From Candidatus Pacearchaeota archaeon (GTDB taxonomy: Archaea; Nanobdellota; Nanobdellia; Pacearchaeales; GW2011-AR1), in assembly GCA_017609205.1 (NCBI GenBank), contig JAFCEL010000001.1, forward strand, positions 439,224-503,223: a stretch of 64,000 nt of DNA. Reading direction: 5' to 3'. Made by a program: the position numbers and the translations under genes. The notes under the pieces were generated by a model. That model saw only the letters and a list, made by a program, of their open reading frames with translations. It searched no databases and was not told the origin of the DNA. Position 1 is the first letter of the stretch. Each line of letters opens with the position of its first letter. This document shows positions 16,942 to 58,231 of the stretch, piece by piece.

Positions 16942-17982
16942 ATGGGGTTAGAGGCAAAAAAATTGAAGGTGATTGCTGCATTGATTTTAAGTATGGTTTT
17001 CACACTAATGATAATTCATGCAAGACTTTATGGGACAAGACATTCTTTTGGAAATATTCTTATTAATCTTAATGGCAAGAATGTTACTTTAGAAGAGGCA
17101 GTTAAAGGGGATTATTTAGGAGCTAATTCAGATTTTCCTCCTCCTGGTTTTGAGGTGAATACTACTAATATCAGTTTTGGGCATAATGCTGAGGAGATTT
17201 GGGTTTCTATTAATGGAAGTGAAATGACTTTAGCAGACGCGATAGAGACAGGTCTTTTATGTTCGCTAGCAAATTCGACCACAACTTCTTATTCCTATCC
17301 AAGACCAAACCCAGGACATTATGCTACTGAGATTGAGATGGACATGGGTGACGGTGTTACTTTTAGAACCTTGCAATATGCAATTGATATTGGTTTTTTT
17401 TGTGGGAATTATGAGGGTTATGGATGGAAGACTGGAAATTGGAGTGAATGCTCGGTTTCTTGTGGGGGAGGAATACAGACTAGGGATGTCTGGTGCCAGA
17501 AAGCTGATGGGCAAGTTGTAAGTGATAATTATTGTTCAGGCACAAGACCCGCAACAAATCAGAGTTGTAATACTCAGATGTGCCCTACTGTTTATAATTA
17601 TCCTCAGATTAATCAAAGATATATAGGATATAGTTTTGCTACTCTTTCTAATAGAGAAGTGAATAGTTGTGAGGAATGCAATAGTGATGAAGAATGTTGG
17701 ACAGGAAATTCAGAAACAGGAGAAATAGTTTCTTATTGCCAAAAATGCGATACTTTTGTAAGATTTGGGTCCTGGGTAATGAGCATAGAAGCATCAAAAT
17801 TTTGCGAGAGTAAGGGAAAGGATTTAATTAATTTTACTTTTGATAATGCAGATGTTCTTGGGTGGCAATATCAAGTGGTATTGGGTTGGGGTTGGGGTGG
17901 ATGTGACTCGAATACTTGGTATAATTATGATTGTAACACTAGTGGAATGTGTGAAATAATGACACAAATTACTTGTGGTTAA
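16942..17982 (+). CDS. secreted/membrane-anchored Cys-rich glycoprotein with thrombospondin type-1 repeat and possible C-type-lectin-like C-terminus
   Basis: Signal anchor. WSECSVSCGGGIQTRDVWCQ...CSGTRPATNQSCNTQMCP has the canonical six-Cys TSR layout. There are about 9 N-x-S/T sequons. The C-terminus ends with a ...CDSNTWYNYDCNTSGMCEI pattern. Confidence 0.6.
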   Translation: MGLEAKKLKVIAALILSMVFTLMIIHARLYGTRHSFGNILINLNGKNVTLEEAVKGDYLGANSDFPPPGFEVNTTNISFGHNAEEIWVSINGSEMTLADAIETGLLCSLANSTTTSYSYPRPNPGHYATEIEMDMGDGVTFRTLQYAIDIGFFCGNYEGYGWKTGNWSECSVSCGGGIQTRDVWCQKADGQVVSDNYCSGTRPATNQSCNTQMCPTVYNYPQINQRYIGYSFATLSNREVNSCEECNSDEECWTGNSETGEIVSYCQKCDTFVRFGSWVMSIEASKFCESKGKDLINFTFDNADVLGWQYQVVLGWGWGGCDSNTWYNYDCNTSGMCEIMTQITCG

Positions 17983-52729: not shown

Positions 52730-53041
52730 TTAGCCGATATTTGGTTGTTCACAAGTAATTTCATTTCCTTTTTCTCCTCGAGGATCCTCCCAGTTCTGTG
52801 GATGGTTAACTGAAAAGCCTGTCGCTTTTATTTTCGCTATTTTATTGCCTTGACAATAGATTTCATAGTCTTCACAATAAATCTCTCCAGACTCTGTTTT
52901 ATTGCAGATTGCTTTTGTATAAGAGTAATTCATCTCCCTCTCAATTGTTCGTCCTGTTAGAACTTGTTTTGAAAAGTAAAATACCCCTATGCTTACTAAG
53001 ATAAGCAGGCCTAAAATAAAAAGACTTTTTTTAGTATTCAT
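52730..53041 (-). CDS. small secreted Cys-rich protein
   Basis: Start MNTKKSLFILGLLILVSIGV. The mature part has 6 Cys. Confidence 0.4.
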   Translation of the reverse strand: MNTKKSLFILGLLILVSIGVFYFSKQVLTGRTIEREMNYSYTKAICNKTESGEIYCEDYEIYCQGNKIAKIKATGFSVNHPQNWEDPRGEKGNEITCEQPNIG

Positions 53042-53090
53042 TTTCTTTAAGTTTACAAAAGTATAAAAAGTTTCTTCATAGACTTTTTTT

Positions 53091-53927
53091 ATGAAAAACA
53101 AATGTATTGTTCTCTTTTCTGGTGGGTTGGATAGCCGTCTTGCTGTGAAAATTATGCAGGAGAGAGGGTTTGAAGTAGAGGCTTTGCATTTTAATCTTCC
53201 TTTTGGTTGTGGTTGTTGTGATTTCGGATGTAATTTTAATTTTACTCAAAAATCAGATGTGAAATTTAGCATTCTTGATTGTACACATGGGAAATTATTG
53301 AAGGAATATTTAGGGGTTTTGAAGGGGGGAAAGCATGGACGTGGAGCAGGATTTAATCCCTGTATTGATTGTAAGATTTTTATGTTTAAAAAAGCCAAGG
53401 AGTATGCTAATAAAAGAGGGATAGATATTATTGCAACGGGAGAAGTTCTAGGGCAAAGGCCAATGAGCCAGACGCCCAGAGCGATGAAGATTATTGATAA
53501 GGAAATAGGGTTTGAATTAACACGCCCTTTGATTGAACTTGGTATTTGTGGGAGAAATAGAAAAAAACAGATAGAATTAGCAGAGAAATATGGAATAAAA
53601 TATCCTACTCCTGCAGGAGGTTGTTTACTTTGTGAAAAACAGCTTAAAAAGAGATTTGAGATTCTTATAAAAAATGATTTAATCAATGAAATAACCTTGC
53701 CTCTGGTAAATATTGGCAGGCATTTTTTTAAAGATAATTGTTGGTTTGTCGTTGGGAGGGATAAGAGTGAGAATAAGATAATAGAGAAATTTGAAAACTG
53801 TATTAAGTCAGGAAAAGGAAAACCTGCTGTTTATTATTTCAAGAAGGAAGGAGAGATATTTGCAAAGGAATTACAAGAAGATTATAAGAAAGGAGGGAAA
53901 AAGAAATTTAGTAATGAGAAAATATAA
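53091..53927 (+). CDS. ThiI-like PP-loop ATPase lacking the THUMP domain (tRNA sulfurtransferase-like)
   Basis: SGGLDS PP-loop, EALHF, NPCIDCKIFMFKKA and GEVLGQRPMSQT...TRPL motifs. Confidence 0.65.
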   Translation: MKNKCIVLFSGGLDSRLAVKIMQERGFEVEALHFNLPFGCGCCDFGCNFNFTQKSDVKFSILDCTHGKLLKEYLGVLKGGKHGRGAGFNPCIDCKIFMFKKAKEYANKRGIDIIATGEVLGQRPMSQTPRAMKIIDKEIGFELTRPLIELGICGRNRKKQIELAEKYGIKYPTPAGGCLLCEKQLKKRFEILIKNDLINEITLPLVNIGRHFFKDNCWFVVGRDKSENKIIEKFENCIKSGKGKPAVYYFKKEGEIFAKELQEDYKKGGKKKFSNEKI

Positions 53928-54495
53928 AATGTGCTATAAATGTCAATTAAAACCTGTTTATGAATTTACTAATAAGCGAAGAGTTTGCAAGACCTGTTAT
54001 ATTCGGTGGTTTGAGAAAAAAGTTCTTTATACAATCAGAAAATTTAATCTTCTGAAGAAAGGGGATATTGTTGGATATTCTCAGAAGAATGATTTCCGTT
54101 CTGTTGTTCTTGAGGCTATTTTAAAGATGCTGGCAAAGAATGGCAGGATTGAAGTTATGAAGCTGGATTCTTCTTTGGTTCATAAAAAGGAAGGTGGATT
54201 GAAAATCACGAAACTTGCAGTGCCTTCTACAACAGATTTAGAATCTTATCAGGTTGTTTCTGAGATTCTTTATGGAGATATTGAAAATCTTAATAGATTA
54301 AAGCCTCTTGATAAAAAGACTATTAAACCTCTTTATTTGTTTCTTGATAAGGAAGTTGAACTTTATGCTAATTTAAGAGGTTTGGATTTTAAGAGATATA
54401 AGAAGCAAAAGGATAAGGTTTCTAGTTTTATTGATGAGCTTGAGAAAAGTCATCCTGAAATTAAGAGAAGCATAATCAATGGATTGTTTGAATAA
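53914..54495 (+). CDS. TtuA/Ncs6-like protein with N-terminal Zn ribbon and degenerate PP-loop
   Basis: CYKCQ...CKTCY ribbon, then KKGDIVGYSQKNDFRS where SGGKDS is expected. Overlaps the preceding ORF by 14 nt. Confidence 0.4.
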   Translation: MRKYKMCYKCQLKPVYEFTNKRRVCKTCYIRWFEKKVLYTIRKFNLLKKGDIVGYSQKNDFRSVVLEAILKMLAKNGRIEVMKLDSSLVHKKEGGLKITKLAVPSTTDLESYQVVSEILYGDIENLNRLKPLDKKTIKPLYLFLDKEVELYANLRGLDFKRYKKQKDKVSSFIDELEKSHPEIKRSIINGLFE

Positions 54496-56490
54496 CTAAT
54501 TTCCACCTTCAATTCTTTTTAGGAAATTACTAATGAATTTTTTATTTCCTTCTCTATCTTTTATTTCTTTGATAGTATAAACAGTCAAGTCTTCTTCGCC
54601 GTGTTTTTCCAATTTAATATTTGCAGGAACTTTTTCTTTTATTTTTTCACTTAGCATGATTTTTTTATCTGACATTGATGCTATTTTTTTTGAGTTTGTT
54701 ATCAAAGTTCCCATACTCATAAATTTGAGTGAATCTTTTTCTTGCTGGGCGATTATTGTTCCGTAATTAATGGATATCCCAAAGTCTATCTTTTGCTTAA
54801 ATAATTTATTGTGCTCTTTGAGAATATCTTCTATTTGTTGGGAGAATTTTATAGCTTTTTCCTCGTTTTTGAATGTTTTTGTTATTGACGGAATGAATAA
54901 GAAGAACATGAAGTTGTTACTTTCGTAAATATAAATTTTATTTTCTTCTGCGAGATTTACTATCTTTTGTAGTGTTTCTTCTGTTTGATCTTTTTTTGAC
55001 TCTATTTCTTTTAAGTTTTTGATGTTGAGGCACACGAGGTTTATTGTTTGTTTGTTTCCTTTTATTGAAAGAGACAATTCTGCTTTGTTTCTTGTTTTTA
55101 ATAGAGATTCTTTTCTTAGAGCTATTTTTGGTTTTACTTGTTCTTTTTTTCGAGTAATATAAGCAAAGAAAGTTTTGTTATAACCCTTTCTGAAAATAAT
55201 GAATGCGAAAAATCCTAGGACTGCTATAAGAAATATCCACGATATCGGATGTTGAATTACTTTTACCATTCCTGAAGATGGTTCTCTAATTCCTACTGCT
55301 TTACCTGTCAGAAGAACCCCTTCTTTAACTTGGCTTTCTCCTTCTGTTATTATCTCAACAGTGTATTTTCCATCTGGAGCAGTAAGAATGTATTTTATTT
55401 CTTCGTCTATTCCCAAGTCTACACTTATATTAAATGTTGAATTTTCTATTTTTATTAGTACAGTGTCGTTGTAGGGAACATTCCCAATATTTGTTATTGT
55501 TAGGGTTTTGTTGATTATTTCTGTTTTGACATCTGCTTTTTGAACTATTTCAAAGGATGATTCTGCAGTAAGATTATTAGAGCCTGCAGTTATGGTCCAT
55601 TCTGCTGGTGGCTCTTTATAGAGTATAGGAATCTCGAGGTATTCGTCTGTAGGAATCTCTGATTTTTTGATTACTGACCCTTGATTGTTTGTTATAGTTA
55701 TCAGTGAAGTTGAGGGGATTTTTTCTCCTGTTTGGTCATGTAGGATTGTTTTTATCTTTGCATTTGTTCCGGGTTCTATTGTCTTATTTTCTAATAATAT
55801 CTCAAGACTCGTTGGAACTTGAGTTATTTTTATGTTATAATTTGCAAATCCTTCATTAGTTATTTCACCCTTTAGATCTTTTTCAAAGACGTCTATTTTT
55901 ACTAAATACTGATCTGCTTTTGTTTCTTTTGGCATAGAGAAGGTTATGTATCCGTAGCCATTATTTACTAATTCAATAATATTGAGATTTTCTGTAAGAT
56001 TTCCTCCTTCAATAGAAACATTCACGAACCCCTCTACGAGTTGATTGTTCTCTTTAATTGCCTCAAATTCAATTGCTATTTCTTCTTCAGGTGCGAATTC
56101 TTTTTGCTCTGTTTTTAGATTTATTTTTATATTGTCAGAGATTTTGAATTCATCAGTTAGCTTTGTTTCTTCTCCAAGGGTTGCCTTGATTTTACATGTT
56201 CCTGTTGAGCGTCCTAGAAATTCTTTTTTTAAGGGGATTGAGGGCTCTCTTGAAATTTCTTCGCCTGAGGATAGGATAATATTTTCAAAATAAGCAAGTG
56301 TTTCTTTGCCATTACAGATTAAGTTTATCTCTAGAGATTCACTAATAGCTTCAAGAGTTTTTACTTTTATTGGAAGTATTATTCTGTCTCCAAGATTGTA
56401 AATGTTGTCTGGTTGTTTAACTATAATTATCTCTGCAGATGCGAAAGAAATCATTGATAAGAGTATTAGTATAGTTAATATCTTCCTCAT
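54496..56490 (-). CDS. surface (glyco)protein: signal peptide, large beta-rich ectodomain, single TM, ~230-aa cytoplasmic tail with degenerate nucleotidyl-cyclase-like pattern
   Basis: Signal MRKILTILILLSMISFASA, many N-x-S/T sequons and TM ISWIFLIAVLGFFAFIIF. The tail pattern KIDFGISINYGTIIA...MGTLITNSKKIAS is read as class III cyclase-like. Confidence 0.55.
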   Translation of the reverse strand: MRKILTILILLSMISFASAEIIIVKQPDNIYNLGDRIILPIKVKTLEAISESLEINLICNGKETLAYFENIILSSGEEISREPSIPLKKEFLGRSTGTCKIKATLGEETKLTDEFKISDNIKINLKTEQKEFAPEEEIAIEFEAIKENNQLVEGFVNVSIEGGNLTENLNIIELVNNGYGYITFSMPKETKADQYLVKIDVFEKDLKGEITNEGFANYNIKITQVPTSLEILLENKTIEPGTNAKIKTILHDQTGEKIPSTSLITITNNQGSVIKKSEIPTDEYLEIPILYKEPPAEWTITAGSNNLTAESSFEIVQKADVKTEIINKTLTITNIGNVPYNDTVLIKIENSTFNISVDLGIDEEIKYILTAPDGKYTVEIITEGESQVKEGVLLTGKAVGIREPSSGMVKVIQHPISWIFLIAVLGFFAFIIFRKGYNKTFFAYITRKKEQVKPKIALRKESLLKTRNKAELSLSIKGNKQTINLVCLNIKNLKEIESKKDQTEETLQKIVNLAEENKIYIYESNNFMFFLFIPSITKTFKNEEKAIKFSQQIEDILKEHNKLFKQKIDFGISINYGTIIAQQEKDSLKFMSMGTLITNSKKIASMSDKKIMLSEKIKEKVPANIKLEKHGEEDLTVYTIKEIKDREGNKKFISNFLKRIEGGN

Positions 56491-56547: not shown

Positions 56548-57705
56548 ATGCTTTTATTGACTATGACAAAAAAAATGAAGGTGACGCCTTATGATGTTAG
56601 AGGTAAGGTTAATTATGATAAACTTATTAATGAGTTTGGAGTAAAAAAATTAAGTGAAGGTGATTTGAAAAGAATTGAGAGGCTTGCAGGAGAATTACAT
56701 CCTTATTTAAGGAGGGGAATTTTTTTTGCGCATCGTGATTTGAAAAGAGTTCTTGACGAATATGAGAAAGGGAACAAGTTTTTTCTTTATACAGGGATTG
56801 GGCCATCTGGACCTATTCATCTTGGACATATTGGGACATGGAGATTGGTTAAATGGCTGCAGGATAGGTTTGATACTGACTTGTGGTTTCAGTTTACAGA
56901 TGATGAGAAATTTCTTTATGGGAATAAGGGGTTTAAGGAGATTAGAAGATGGACAAAAGAGAATATGATTGATATAATTGCATTGGGGTTTAATCCAAAG
57001 AAAACACATTTTTTGGTTGATACTCTTCATGCAGGGATAATGTATCCGGAAGCAATTAAGGTTGCTAAGAAGATAACTTTCTCGACGATAAAAGCATCTT
57101 TTGGATTTAATGATTCAAATAACATTGGAAGTATTTTTTATACTGCTATGCAAACGGTTCCTATTTTTCTTCCAAATATCTTAAGAAACGAAAACAGGCC
57201 TTGTCTGATTCCTCTTGGAGTTGATCAGGATCCTCATTTTAGAATCTCAAGAGATGTAGTTGAAAAATTAGGGCATAAAAAACCTGCTATTTTACATGCA
57301 AAATTTATGCCTGCGTTAAGAGGGCCTGAGGGCAAAATGAGCAGTAGCTTGACTAATAGCGCAATTTTAATGACTGATTCTCCTAAAGAAGTTGAAAGAA
57401 AAATTAAAAAATATGCTTTTTCAGGGGGGCAGAAGACAATTGCAGAACATAGACAAAAAGGCGGAAACCCTGATATTGATGTTAGTTTTCAGTGGTTGAG
57501 ATATTTTGAGGAAGATGATGAGAGATTAAATCAGATAAGAGAAGATTATAAGTCTGGGAGATTGCTAACAAGTGAACTCAAGGAAATTTTAATTAAGAAA
57601 ATAAATGCTTTTTTAAAAGTACATCAGGAGAGAAGAAAAAAAGCAAAAGATAAAATCAATGATTTTTTGTTTAAAACTAGATCTCTCTATAAAATTGATG
57701 TTTAA
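56548..57705 (+). CDS. trpS: tryptophanyl-tRNA synthetase
   Basis: YTGIGPSGPIHLGHIGTWRLVKWLQD (HIGH) and KMSSS motifs. Confidence 0.8.
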   Translation: MLLLTMTKKMKVTPYDVRGKVNYDKLINEFGVKKLSEGDLKRIERLAGELHPYLRRGIFFAHRDLKRVLDEYEKGNKFFLYTGIGPSGPIHLGHIGTWRLVKWLQDRFDTDLWFQFTDDEKFLYGNKGFKEIRRWTKENMIDIIALGFNPKKTHFLVDTLHAGIMYPEAIKVAKKITFSTIKASFGFNDSNNIGSIFYTAMQTVPIFLPNILRNENRPCLIPLGVDQDPHFRISRDVVEKLGHKKPAILHAKFMPALRGPEGKMSSSLTNSAILMTDSPKEVERKIKKYAFSGGQKTIAEHRQKGGNPDIDVSFQWLRYFEEDDERLNQIREDYKSGRLLTSELKEILIKKINAFLKVHQERRKKAKDKINDFLFKTRSLYKIDV

Positions 57706-58231
57706 ATCCTCGGGAATCTATTGGTTGAAGTCTATTGGGGTCTATTTTCAGTTTCCCTTGTTTTAATTTTCTTATTAGACTTTTTTTGTAAAAGTGGGTT
57801 TGCCCGAAATTATAATATTCCCATTCTCCTCTTAGCAAGCCTTTTGCTATTATTAAGCTTTCATGCCATTCTTTAATCTCTTCTTTTTTTGGGTGTAGGA
57901 TTCTTCTTAAGTTCTCTCTATTTTTTGTTGTATTGTCAAAACAGCTATATTGATTGGGATGCAATAAGACTTCTTTAAGTGAGCCTTCACCATTATACTT
58001 TCTTCCATCATTTAGTCTATTAAATGGAGTAATTCCAGCAAATATCTTCTCTCTTGGTTCGCAACCGCTTGTTTCTCCGTAAATCATCATTGCTAATAAG
58101 ATATCTTCTGATTTTTGTTCTAGAATCTTTCTTTCAGATATACCGTAACTTGATTCTGGAAGAAGCAGTCTGCTAACTAAATCTGCTCCTGCCATTCCTG
58201 TAATTTTTAAAAATTGTCTTCGATTCATCAT
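57677..58231 (-). CDS. Tat-signal secreted cell-wall hydrolase (SleB/CwlJ Hydrolase_2-like)
   Basis: N-terminus MMNRRQFLKITGMAGA (twin-arginine). ILLAMMIYGETSG...ITPFNRL...HPNQYSCFD resembles the SleB family. Confidence 0.5.
   Translation of the reverse strand: MMNRRQFLKITGMAGADLVSRLLLPESSYGISERKILEQKSEDILLAMMIYGETSGCEPREKIFAGITPFNRLNDGRKYNGEGSLKEVLLHPNQYSCFDNTTKNRENLRRILHPKKEEIKEWHESLIIAKGLLRGEWEYYNFGQTHFYKKSLIRKLKQGKLKIDPNRLQPIDSRGFKHQFYREI

Follow-up and report, generated by a model that had tools for sequence, protein, structure and literature searches.

The 64,000-nucleotide stretch of contig JAFCEL010000001.1 from a Candidatus Pacearchaeota archaeon (assembly GCA_017609205.1, positions 439,224 to 503,223), referred to here as the window, carries two abutting open reading frames (ORFs) on its plus strand, in different reading frames. 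ORF1 encodes a predicted tRNA thiouridine synthase of the ThiI type, and ORF2 a miniaturised, very probably catalytically dead protein derived from the thiolase NcsA/TtuA. These two identities are assigned with high confidence. The pair is read here, with middling confidence, as a co-expressed unit whose ancestor was an operon encoding two tRNA thiolases. ORF1 belongs to a described but uncharacterised family, and ORF2 represents an unannotated family, a minimal version of an inactive tRNA-enzyme relative. The nearest homologs of both proteins all come from Nanoarchaeota metagenome-assembled genomes (MAGs) labelled Woesearchaeota or Pacearchaeota.

ORF2 is a degenerate, miniaturised NcsA/TtuA

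Searches with the single ORF2 sequence gave weak results. The NCBIfam TtuA model was matched at 5.4e-7 and an NcsA entry in the PDB at 6e-4, and TIGR00269 scored 20.2 bits against a cut-off of 62.75. Among the 104 aligned members of the ORF2 family, PF01171 had no match at E<=0.1, no PP-loop-related Pfam family was found, and no single family was consistently matched. The ORF2 family has no Pfam model; its members carry the source labels 'hypothetical' or, occasionally and wrongly, 'TilS', and no literature on it was found. Because Pfam gave nothing meaningful, the identity of ORF2 required comparison of structures and profiles. The AlphaFold2 (AF2) model built from the 104-sequence alignment (residues are numbered according to the 188-residue form) reached a predicted local distance difference test score (pLDDT) of 91.8 and a predicted TM-score (pTM) of 0.87, and its best Foldseek matches were all TtuA/NcsA proteins (E 4e-11 to 2e-9, TMq 0.73-0.77), with TilS next. 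When the ORF2 profile was aligned by hhalign with P0339, a canonical 313-residue DPANN NcsA/TtuA from a related MAG that is itself among the ORF2 profile matches, the probability was 99.9 and the E-value 4e-32. P0339 also has the distinctive N-terminus of ORF2, PV(Y/W)xFTNKRKLCKxCF..YFEKKV.YTIRKF. When 1.84 billion representatives were searched exhaustively with the profile, the ORF2 family proved small, with 786 matches at E<=1e-3, 98 of them at E<=1e-30. The resemblance to the TtuA family that a preliminary description of the locus had proposed is thus weak by single sequence and decisive by Foldseek and hhalign.

ORF2 shares with NcsA/TtuA (TIGR00269, PF01171; PDB 6scy, 5mkq, 5b4f) the fold, the N-terminal ribbon and the KPLY...E..LYA and LE..P..K motifs, which are kept in ORF2 as KPLYLFLD.E..LYA and E..HPE.K. 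It differs from these enzymes in having 188 residues instead of about 305, in lacking the PP-loop, the iron-sulfur (Fe-S) cysteines and the C-terminal zinc finger, and in falling below all Pfam thresholds. Alignment with P0339 locates these losses: about 75 residues that include the CxxC Fe-S ligands are deleted, as is the loop of the third Fe-S cysteine; the C-terminal zinc finger is missing, and ORF2 ends after the ExxHPExK helix region. The CxxC...CxxC ribbon that had been noted earlier is present, and its cysteines (C2, C5, C20 and C23) are the only four in the protein; together with Y11, F13 and N15 they are invariant in all 104 sequences. A basic helix follows the ribbon, and residues 1-45 have an isoelectric point of about 10. 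The same contrast appears in a motif census of the family. SGGxDS, the mid CxxC and the C-terminal ribbon are each missing from every one of the 120 ORF2-family members among the matches listed, all of which retain the N-terminal ribbon; the 119 canonical Nanoarchaeota homologs, by contrast, all possess the three missing elements. Because neither the PP-loop nor the Fe-S cysteines remain, ORF2 is almost certainly catalytically dead. The preliminary description had judged it a TtuA-like and probably dead protein from the degenerate PP-loop, with KNDFRS in place of SGGKDS, and the loss of the Fe-S cysteines adds to that judgement.

Diverged 'MINI' forms of about 160 residues, some without the ribbon cysteines, extend this series of NcsA degeneration. 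Several ORF2-like proteins (P0361, P0366, P0367, P0380 and P0383; e.g. L090:4001-4480) do not have even the zinc-ribbon cysteines. Separately, many database entries of the ORF2 family start at a conserved internal methionine at profile position 41, which suggests either that these proteins truly lack the ribbon or that starts are systematically miscalled. The ORF2 homolog P0015 contains a 95-nucleotide in-frame element twice (L097:1507-1601 and 1846-1940), the copies being 95% identical and occupying two loop positions that are variably inserted in other homologs. P0024 and P0324 contain peptide inserts similar to it, and P0026, P0043, P0085 and P0115 have large inserts as well; the exact core of the P0015 element was found in none of the other 174 loci. 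The element resembles a small repeated insertion of the sort that surface loops can accommodate.

Probable origin of ORF2 in the slot of NcsA

The genomic position of ORF2 points to its ancestry. The syntenic order in the 80 GTDB species loci that, together with the window, make up the 81 ORF2 loci is LemA, HtpX, a membrane protein (C2), ORF1 where present, ORF2, a minus-strand gene (C3) and tryptophanyl-tRNA synthetase (TrpRS). In more distant Nanoarchaeota, sampled for the contexts of their canonical NcsA genes, this slot holds a canonical NcsA. In locus L085, a canonical NcsA of 306 residues begins 9 nucleotides after a ThiI-NFACT-R gene with 43% identity to ORF1, and a full-length C3 homolog on the minus strand comes next. 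Locus L084 has the same junction of ThiI-NFACT-R and canonical NcsA, and in L081 and L083, too, canonical NcsA has a C3-like gene downstream. C3 serves here as a marker of the slot: it is present in 69 of the 81 ORF2 loci, the window included, and a homolog stands beside canonical NcsA in all four loci just named. ORF2 is therefore probably a positional descendant of NcsA, degenerated in place within an ancestral thiI(NFACT-R)-ncsA operon. In the preliminary description, ORF2 had been taken as an inactive paralog of ORF1; the inactivity stands, whereas the paralogy does not, because the slot is shared with canonical NcsA (L084, L085). In a neighbour-joining tree the degenerate forms all cluster together. 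This was not relied on as evidence for a single origin, since long-branch attraction and shared deletions could give the same result.

C3 itself has no Pfam match. It has an N-terminal hydrophobic segment, and zero intergenic bases separate it from the ORF2 stop. Its distances co-vary strongly with those of the membrane protein C2 (51873-52721; partial r 0.66).

The main rival explanation for ORF2 is a role like that of eukaryotic Ctu2/Ncs2, in which it would heterodimerise with an intact TtuA/NcsA paralog encoded elsewhere and orient the tRNA, its adjacency to ORF1 being inherited gene order. Ctu2, itself dead and related to Ctu1/NcsA, has lost the Fe-S cysteines and kept its zinc fingers; it has been modelled on the NcsA homodimer interface and is thought to help orient tRNA (PMC10067955). 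ORF2 is likewise a dead NcsA relative with the Fe-S cysteines lost and zinc-finger elements kept, in its case the N-terminal finger only, and it is retained where ORF1 is absent from the slot. Moreover, canonical Nanoarchaeota NcsA homologs form two groups, one of which sits in other contexts (L086, L087). Several observations speak against this role and make it decidedly unlikely. A window-wide SGGxDS search found no canonical NcsA and no second PP-loop gene besides ORF1, and none of 160 ORF2 or ORF1 loci holds a canonical NcsA, so that canonical and degenerate copies never share a locus. ORF2 occupies the canonical gene's own slot, and no Pfam CTU2 match was found in the 104 members at E<=0.1 among the 25 best-represented of the 46 families that the ORF2 family matched. 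Ctu2 also differs from ORF2 in size (about 500 residues against 188), in having both zinc fingers and extra disordered regions, and in having an active partner of its own family, Ctu1; the only conserved neighbour enzyme of ORF2 is from another PP-loop family. ORF2 arose independently of Ctu2, in DPANN archaea.

ORF1 is a ThiI-type PP-loop enzyme with an NFACT-R_2 domain

The N-terminal ~200 residues of ORF1 fall into the ThiI/MnmA/QueC PP-loop group in Pfam and NCBIfam, with ThiI on top. Pfam ThiI is matched at E 5.9e-14 in ORF1 and in all 89 close relatives over which residue conservation was counted. The AF2 model has a pLDDT of 93.8, and Foldseek returns MnmA, ThiI, QueC and LarE, a similarity at the generic fold level. 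In the PP-loop, S10, G12, L13, D14, S15 and R16 are invariant in the 89 relatives and G11 is kept in 87; R145, G154, R155, R157 and Q160 are likewise invariant, and P146 and L147 occur in 88. No THUMP or rhodanese domain was matched in Pfam or NCBIfam, with all 278 residues accounted for. The preliminary description of ORF1 as an intact THUMP-less ThiI PP-loop enzyme, with SGGLDS, NPCIDCK (residues 89-95) and RPL in place, is thus borne out. It had, however, overlooked a C-terminal NFACT-R_2 domain, a predicted RNA-binding module, so that ORF1 is not without such a module. In ORF1 itself the match of the C-terminal ~75 residues to NFACT-R_2 (PF18297) is weak (E 0.016, below the Pfam cut-off). 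Among the 89 relatives, 25 match at E<=0.01, the best at 3.7e-8, and precomputed PF18297 annotation is attached to several ORF1 homologs and to the L084 and L085 genes.

This architecture has a precedent. Burroughs and Aravind (2014; PMC4075521) described ThiI+DUF814 proteins with GRxRxxQ, a CxxC plus an internal cysteine, a fused DUF814 domain and no THUMP or rhodanese, and predicted that they form an alternative tRNA 4-thiouridine (s4U8) synthase. ORF1 has the same ThiI-type PP-loop, cysteines, GRxRxxQ motif and NFACT-R_2 domain and likewise has no THUMP or rhodanese; because of the C-terminal NFACT-R_2 and the GRxRxxQ motif it is placed, on sequence grounds, in the ThiI+DUF814/NFACT-R_2 family. 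There are also differences. The family was described as mostly bacterial with a few Thaumarchaeota, whereas the lineage of ORF1 is Nanoarchaeota, and its sole conserved neighbour was TusA, whereas the conserved same-strand neighbour of ORF1 is an NcsA-derived gene (PMC4075521). No TusA annotation appears near ORF1 homologs among the precomputed Pfam calls in L084, L085 and L093-L095, and a recurrent TusA-like cluster is absent from the ORF-cluster maps, the small ORFs of the window having been only partly scanned with Pfam. The literature searched contains no experimental work on the ThiI+DUF814 family; s4U8-tRNA synthase activity is predicted for all of its members, ORF1 included.

Comparison with archaeal TtuI/ThiI bears on the chemistry. 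In Methanococcus maripaludis TtuI, the CXXC+C cysteines bind a catalytic [4Fe-4S] cluster (PMC9825150). The M. maripaludis and P. furiosus enzymes and ORF1 have in common the PP-loop domain and the CXXC+C cysteines at a similar spacing, C94 to C178 of ORF1 being 84 residues apart against 80 for C268 to C348 of MmTtuI (PMC9825150). By analogy, a [4Fe-4S] cluster and cluster-dependent sulfur insertion may be inferred for ORF1. Unlike TtuI, ORF1 is without NFLD and THUMP; C181 adds a fourth invariant cysteine, and there is an additional Cys-rich loop, CGCCDFGC. This loop does not include any of the four invariant active-site cysteines, each of its own cysteines is retained in 76-79 of the 89 relatives, and it is modelled less confidently than the rest (block 41-50, mean pLDDT 70). 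It might bind a second metal or serve as a persulfide relay.

The junction of ORF1 and ORF2

The preliminary description had the two ORFs overlapping by 14 nucleotides. This overlap arises only if ATG 53914 is taken as the start of ORF2, which gives a protein of 193 residues. All 104 aligned ORF2 sequences open with M-C-x-x-C, with M1, C2 and C5 invariant; ORF2 itself is in the database as P0001, a gene call of 188 residues that starts at 53929; and a TAA-A-ATG junction with the same 1-nucleotide spacer was found again in about 22 species-level GTDB loci. For these reasons the junction is read as a gap of one nucleotide, and ORF2 most likely starts at ATG 53929, directly past the spacer that follows the ORF1 stop. 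The two genes are thus tightly coupled, probably without an overlap, and apparently also coupled in translation. One or two unrelated genes are recurrently inserted at the junction, encoding GDPD, DUF2238 or NUDIX proteins or members of clusters c20 and c30 (L014, L015, L016, L026, L027, L031, L043, L047, L077 and L093-L095); ORF1 and ORF2 keep their order and strand there.

Two abutting ORFs in different frames would also be expected if a sequencing or assembly frameshift had split one longer gene, an artefact that the preliminary description had named. The two-ORF layout, however, recurs in more than 100 independent assemblies, each part folds confidently alone, the zinc ribbon is complete from M1 of ORF2, and each gene is also found on its own. 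The recurring layout, the separate folds and the solo occurrences refute a frameshifted single gene, which retains practically no probability; ORF1 and ORF2 are independent families.

Table 1. Features of the ORF1-ORF2 pair and of the adjoining slot marker (window coordinates)
Feature	Position	Strand	Basis
ORF1, ThiI/TtuI-type PP-loop ATP pyrophosphatase with C-terminal NFACT-R_2, 278 aa, predicted	53091..53927	+	Pfam, AF2, Foldseek
ORF1 PP-loop SGGLDS, residues 10-15, ATP-binding signature	53118..53135	+	conservation
ORF1 Cys-rich loop CGCCDFGC (C40, C42, C43, C47; residues 40-47)	53208..53231	+	conservation
ORF1 CxxC (C91, C94), putative [4Fe-4S] ligands	53361..53372	+	invariant 89/89
ORF1 RPL (145-147) and GRxRxxQ (GRNRKKQ, 154-160)	53523..53570	+	conservation
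ORF1 second CxxC (C178, C181); C178 the putative third cluster ligand	53622..53633	+	invariant 89/89
ORF1 C-terminal alpha/beta domain, NFACT-R_2/DUF814-like, predicted RNA-binding	53703..53924	+	Pfam PF18297
Junction TAA-A-ATG: ORF1 stop, 1-nt spacer, ORF2 start	53925..53931	+	recurs across loci
ORF2, miniaturised NcsA/TtuA-derived protein, almost certainly catalytically dead, 188 aa	53929..54495	+	structure, profile comparison
ORF2 N-terminal C4 Zn ribbon (C2, C5, C20, C23) with PVYEFTNKRK knuckle	53932..53997	+	conservation
ORF2 degenerate PP-loop: KNDFRS (K53-S58) replacing SGGKDS	54085..54102	+	alignment to TtuA PH0300, P0339
ORF2 STTDLES, remnant of GHNLDDE; D103 nearly invariant	54226..54246	+	alignment
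ORF2 IKPLYLFLDKEVELYA motif, common to canonical NcsA/TtuA; D140, E142, Y146 invariant	54322..54369	+	alignment
ORF2 ELEKSHPEIK, C-terminal helical motif common to NcsA/TtuA; E172, H175, E177 invariant	54436..54465	+	alignment
C3, 664 aa, convergent, abuts ORF2 stop; slot marker, not claimed as part of the system	54496..56490	-	synteny

Selection on ORF2

If ORF2 were a functionless relic of NcsA decaying in the course of DPANN genome reduction, the massive loss of catalytic elements would be explained, as would the size range of 159-270 residues, the tolerated loop insertions and the absence of the gene from some lineages. Its conservation argues otherwise. The reading frame is intact in 81 of 81 ORF2 loci, the fold is confidently predicted, and 16 columns of the alignment are invariant, with 36 more at least 90% conserved. 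Median ratios of nonsynonymous to synonymous divergence (dN/dS) are 0.30 for ORF2, 0.29 for ORF1, 0.38 for C3 and 0.39 for TrpRS, values that are usable solely as a comparison between neighbours, dS being near saturation in these AT-rich genomes; the dN of ORF2 equals that of ORF1 and is lower than that of TrpRS. By these measures, purifying selection on ORF2 is as strong as on ORF1, which makes a decaying relic highly improbable. As far as sequence tells, ORF2 is still functional.

Association of ORF1 and ORF2 across loci

The two genes keep a fixed arrangement wherever they occur together. All 110 loci with both genes have them co-oriented, ORF1 first. Seen from ORF2, ORF1 lies upstream in 49 of 74 informative loci, mostly at a gap of -4 to +3 nucleotides; seen from ORF1, a degenerate NcsA-like gene lies downstream in 3/3 long contigs and in 56 of 64 informative metagenome loci, 34 of these being adjacent and many overlapping by 4-28 nucleotides. 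L095 retains the pair amid otherwise different neighbours, and L056 has both genes inverted as a single block. In a mirror-tree analysis, ORF1 and ORF2 distances correlate beyond those of C2 and C3 (partial r 0.355, permutation p 0.001). On this basis a functional cooperation of ORF2 with ORF1 is conceivable, and it is advanced only tentatively, as somewhat less than an even prospect.

A number of observations weigh against cooperation. In 25 of the 74 informative loci (a clade of 13 and about 12 scattered cases) the slot contains ORF2 but no ORF1, and ORF2 has the same conserved residues there as elsewhere. Conversely, of the 8 ORF2-less loci that have ample downstream sequence, at least 6 have C3 directly after ORF1, and the MINI forms in L088-L090 are not adjacent to ORF1. 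ORF1 comes with a predicted RNA-binding domain of its own, no comparable partner accompanies its bacterial relatives (PMC4075521), and no fusion of ORF1 and ORF2 was found in 175 loci. Retention over 20 loci was 18 for C3, 16 for TrpRS and 17 for ORF2-like genes. Because the unrelated C3 and TrpRS are retained as often as the ORF2-like genes, adjacency says little about function, and its frequency was rejected as decisive functional evidence, the background synteny being equally strong. Finally, the position modified by ORF1 and the binding of tRNA by ORF2 are both inferred.

The same loci decide how far the two-component tRNA thiolation system of the preliminary description can be taken. In its strict form, ORF1 would be the catalytic and ORF2 the inactive RNA-binding or scaffold subunit of a stable heteromer, neither working alone. 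The tight conserved junction, the gene order invariant in 110 loci, the partner downstream of most ORF1 genes and the modest co-evolution signal are consistent with it. Either gene can also be found alone in this slot, with the conservation of ORF2 identical in either setting, so that an obligate two-component thiolase is not established by the evidence. The NFACT-R_2 domain of ORF1, whose family is predicted to be self-sufficient, and the lack of fusions speak against such a heteromer as well, and a homodimer-like interface is not expected between proteins of different PP-loop families. An obligate thiolase of this kind is accordingly rated unlikely. What stands of the earlier proposal is the conserved pair, not the obligate partnership; likewise, the co-occurrence in relatives that it suggested looking for is present in the co-oriented loci and broken in those where either gene is alone.

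Proposed mechanism

The favoured reading of a co-expressed pair descended from two thiolases can be set out as follows. ORF1 would be the working thiolase, its PP-loop adenylating a tRNA uridine, most likely U8, whose oxygen would then be replaced by sulfur. A [4Fe-4S] cluster on C91, C94 and C178 would deliver the sulfur, as in archaeal TtuI, and NFACT-R_2 would bind the tRNA in place of THUMP. ORF2, which has lost the means for PP-loop-type ATP binding and for holding a cluster and keeps the zinc ribbon, the basic helix, a reduced Rossmann core and the helical motifs, would be a non-catalytic tRNA-binding or scaffold pseudoenzyme. Presumably translated along with ORF1, it would most likely act as an accessory factor in tRNA handling for thiolation, separable from ORF1 and not an obligate subunit.

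A bolder version is very unlikely on present evidence. Here the dead NcsA descendant would be a specificity subunit that continues to recognise the substrates of NcsA, the tRNAs for Lys, Glu and Gln, in the region of U34, and hands them to a catalytic subunit of ThiI type with an NFACT-R domain. If true, a heteromer of two PP-loop families would have replaced the lost NcsA activity, and the pair would be an independently evolved archaeal counterpart of Ctu1-Ctu2 with a non-homologous catalytic partner.

Significance

Archaeal thiolation of U34 or U54 is generally held to need a single NcsA/TtuA only, and the combination of an active enzyme with a dead relative, as in Ctu1/Ctu2, is regarded as a eukaryotic invention. 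Against this background, a large group of DPANN archaea (786 representative clusters) appears to keep a minimal dead NcsA under strong selection. The series from thiolase to pseudoenzyme can be followed within or flanking one syntenic region, from canonical NcsA through degenerate forms of about 180 residues to smaller ribbon-less ones. ORF2 thereby marks the smallest part of the TtuA/NcsA fold worth keeping, presumably a tRNA-binding scaffold, and offers a tractable model for Ctu2. It also raises the question of how, or whether, these archaea with reduced genomes make 2-thiouridine at position 34 (s2U34). The ThiI+NFACT-R enzyme is the main candidate thiolase in this lineage.

Genomic surroundings and other observations

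The window has a guanine-cytosine content of 33%, and the rest of it consists of archaeal housekeeping genes, e.g. RFC, FEN1, HerA and an archaeal-type TrpRS. A window-wide search for SAMP/TtuB-like small proteins with a terminal GG found none, and a Pfam scan of ten selected window ORFs revealed no cysteine desulfurase.

Several other genes of the window are of interest in their own right. Immediately upstream of the pair, a minus-strand ORF of 123 residues (52730-53101) with an N-terminal hydrophobic segment overlaps the start of ORF1 by 11 nucleotides, and a homolog (cluster c23) occupies the same place in L001. A protein of 184 residues with a twin-arginine (TAT) signal is encoded at 57677-58231 on the minus strand, and its relatives (cluster c11) recur in the synteny block. 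In L094, the part corresponding to this gene holds a 227-residue Hydrolase_2 gene of the SleB cell-wall hydrolase type; if the two are homologous, the TAT-signal protein may be a lytic enzyme that an episymbiont secretes. Lastly, a protein of 346 residues (16942-17982, plus strand) matches TSP1_ADAMTS, a thrombospondin type 1 repeat, at E 8e-14, an animal-type adhesion domain that is unexpected in DPANN archaea.

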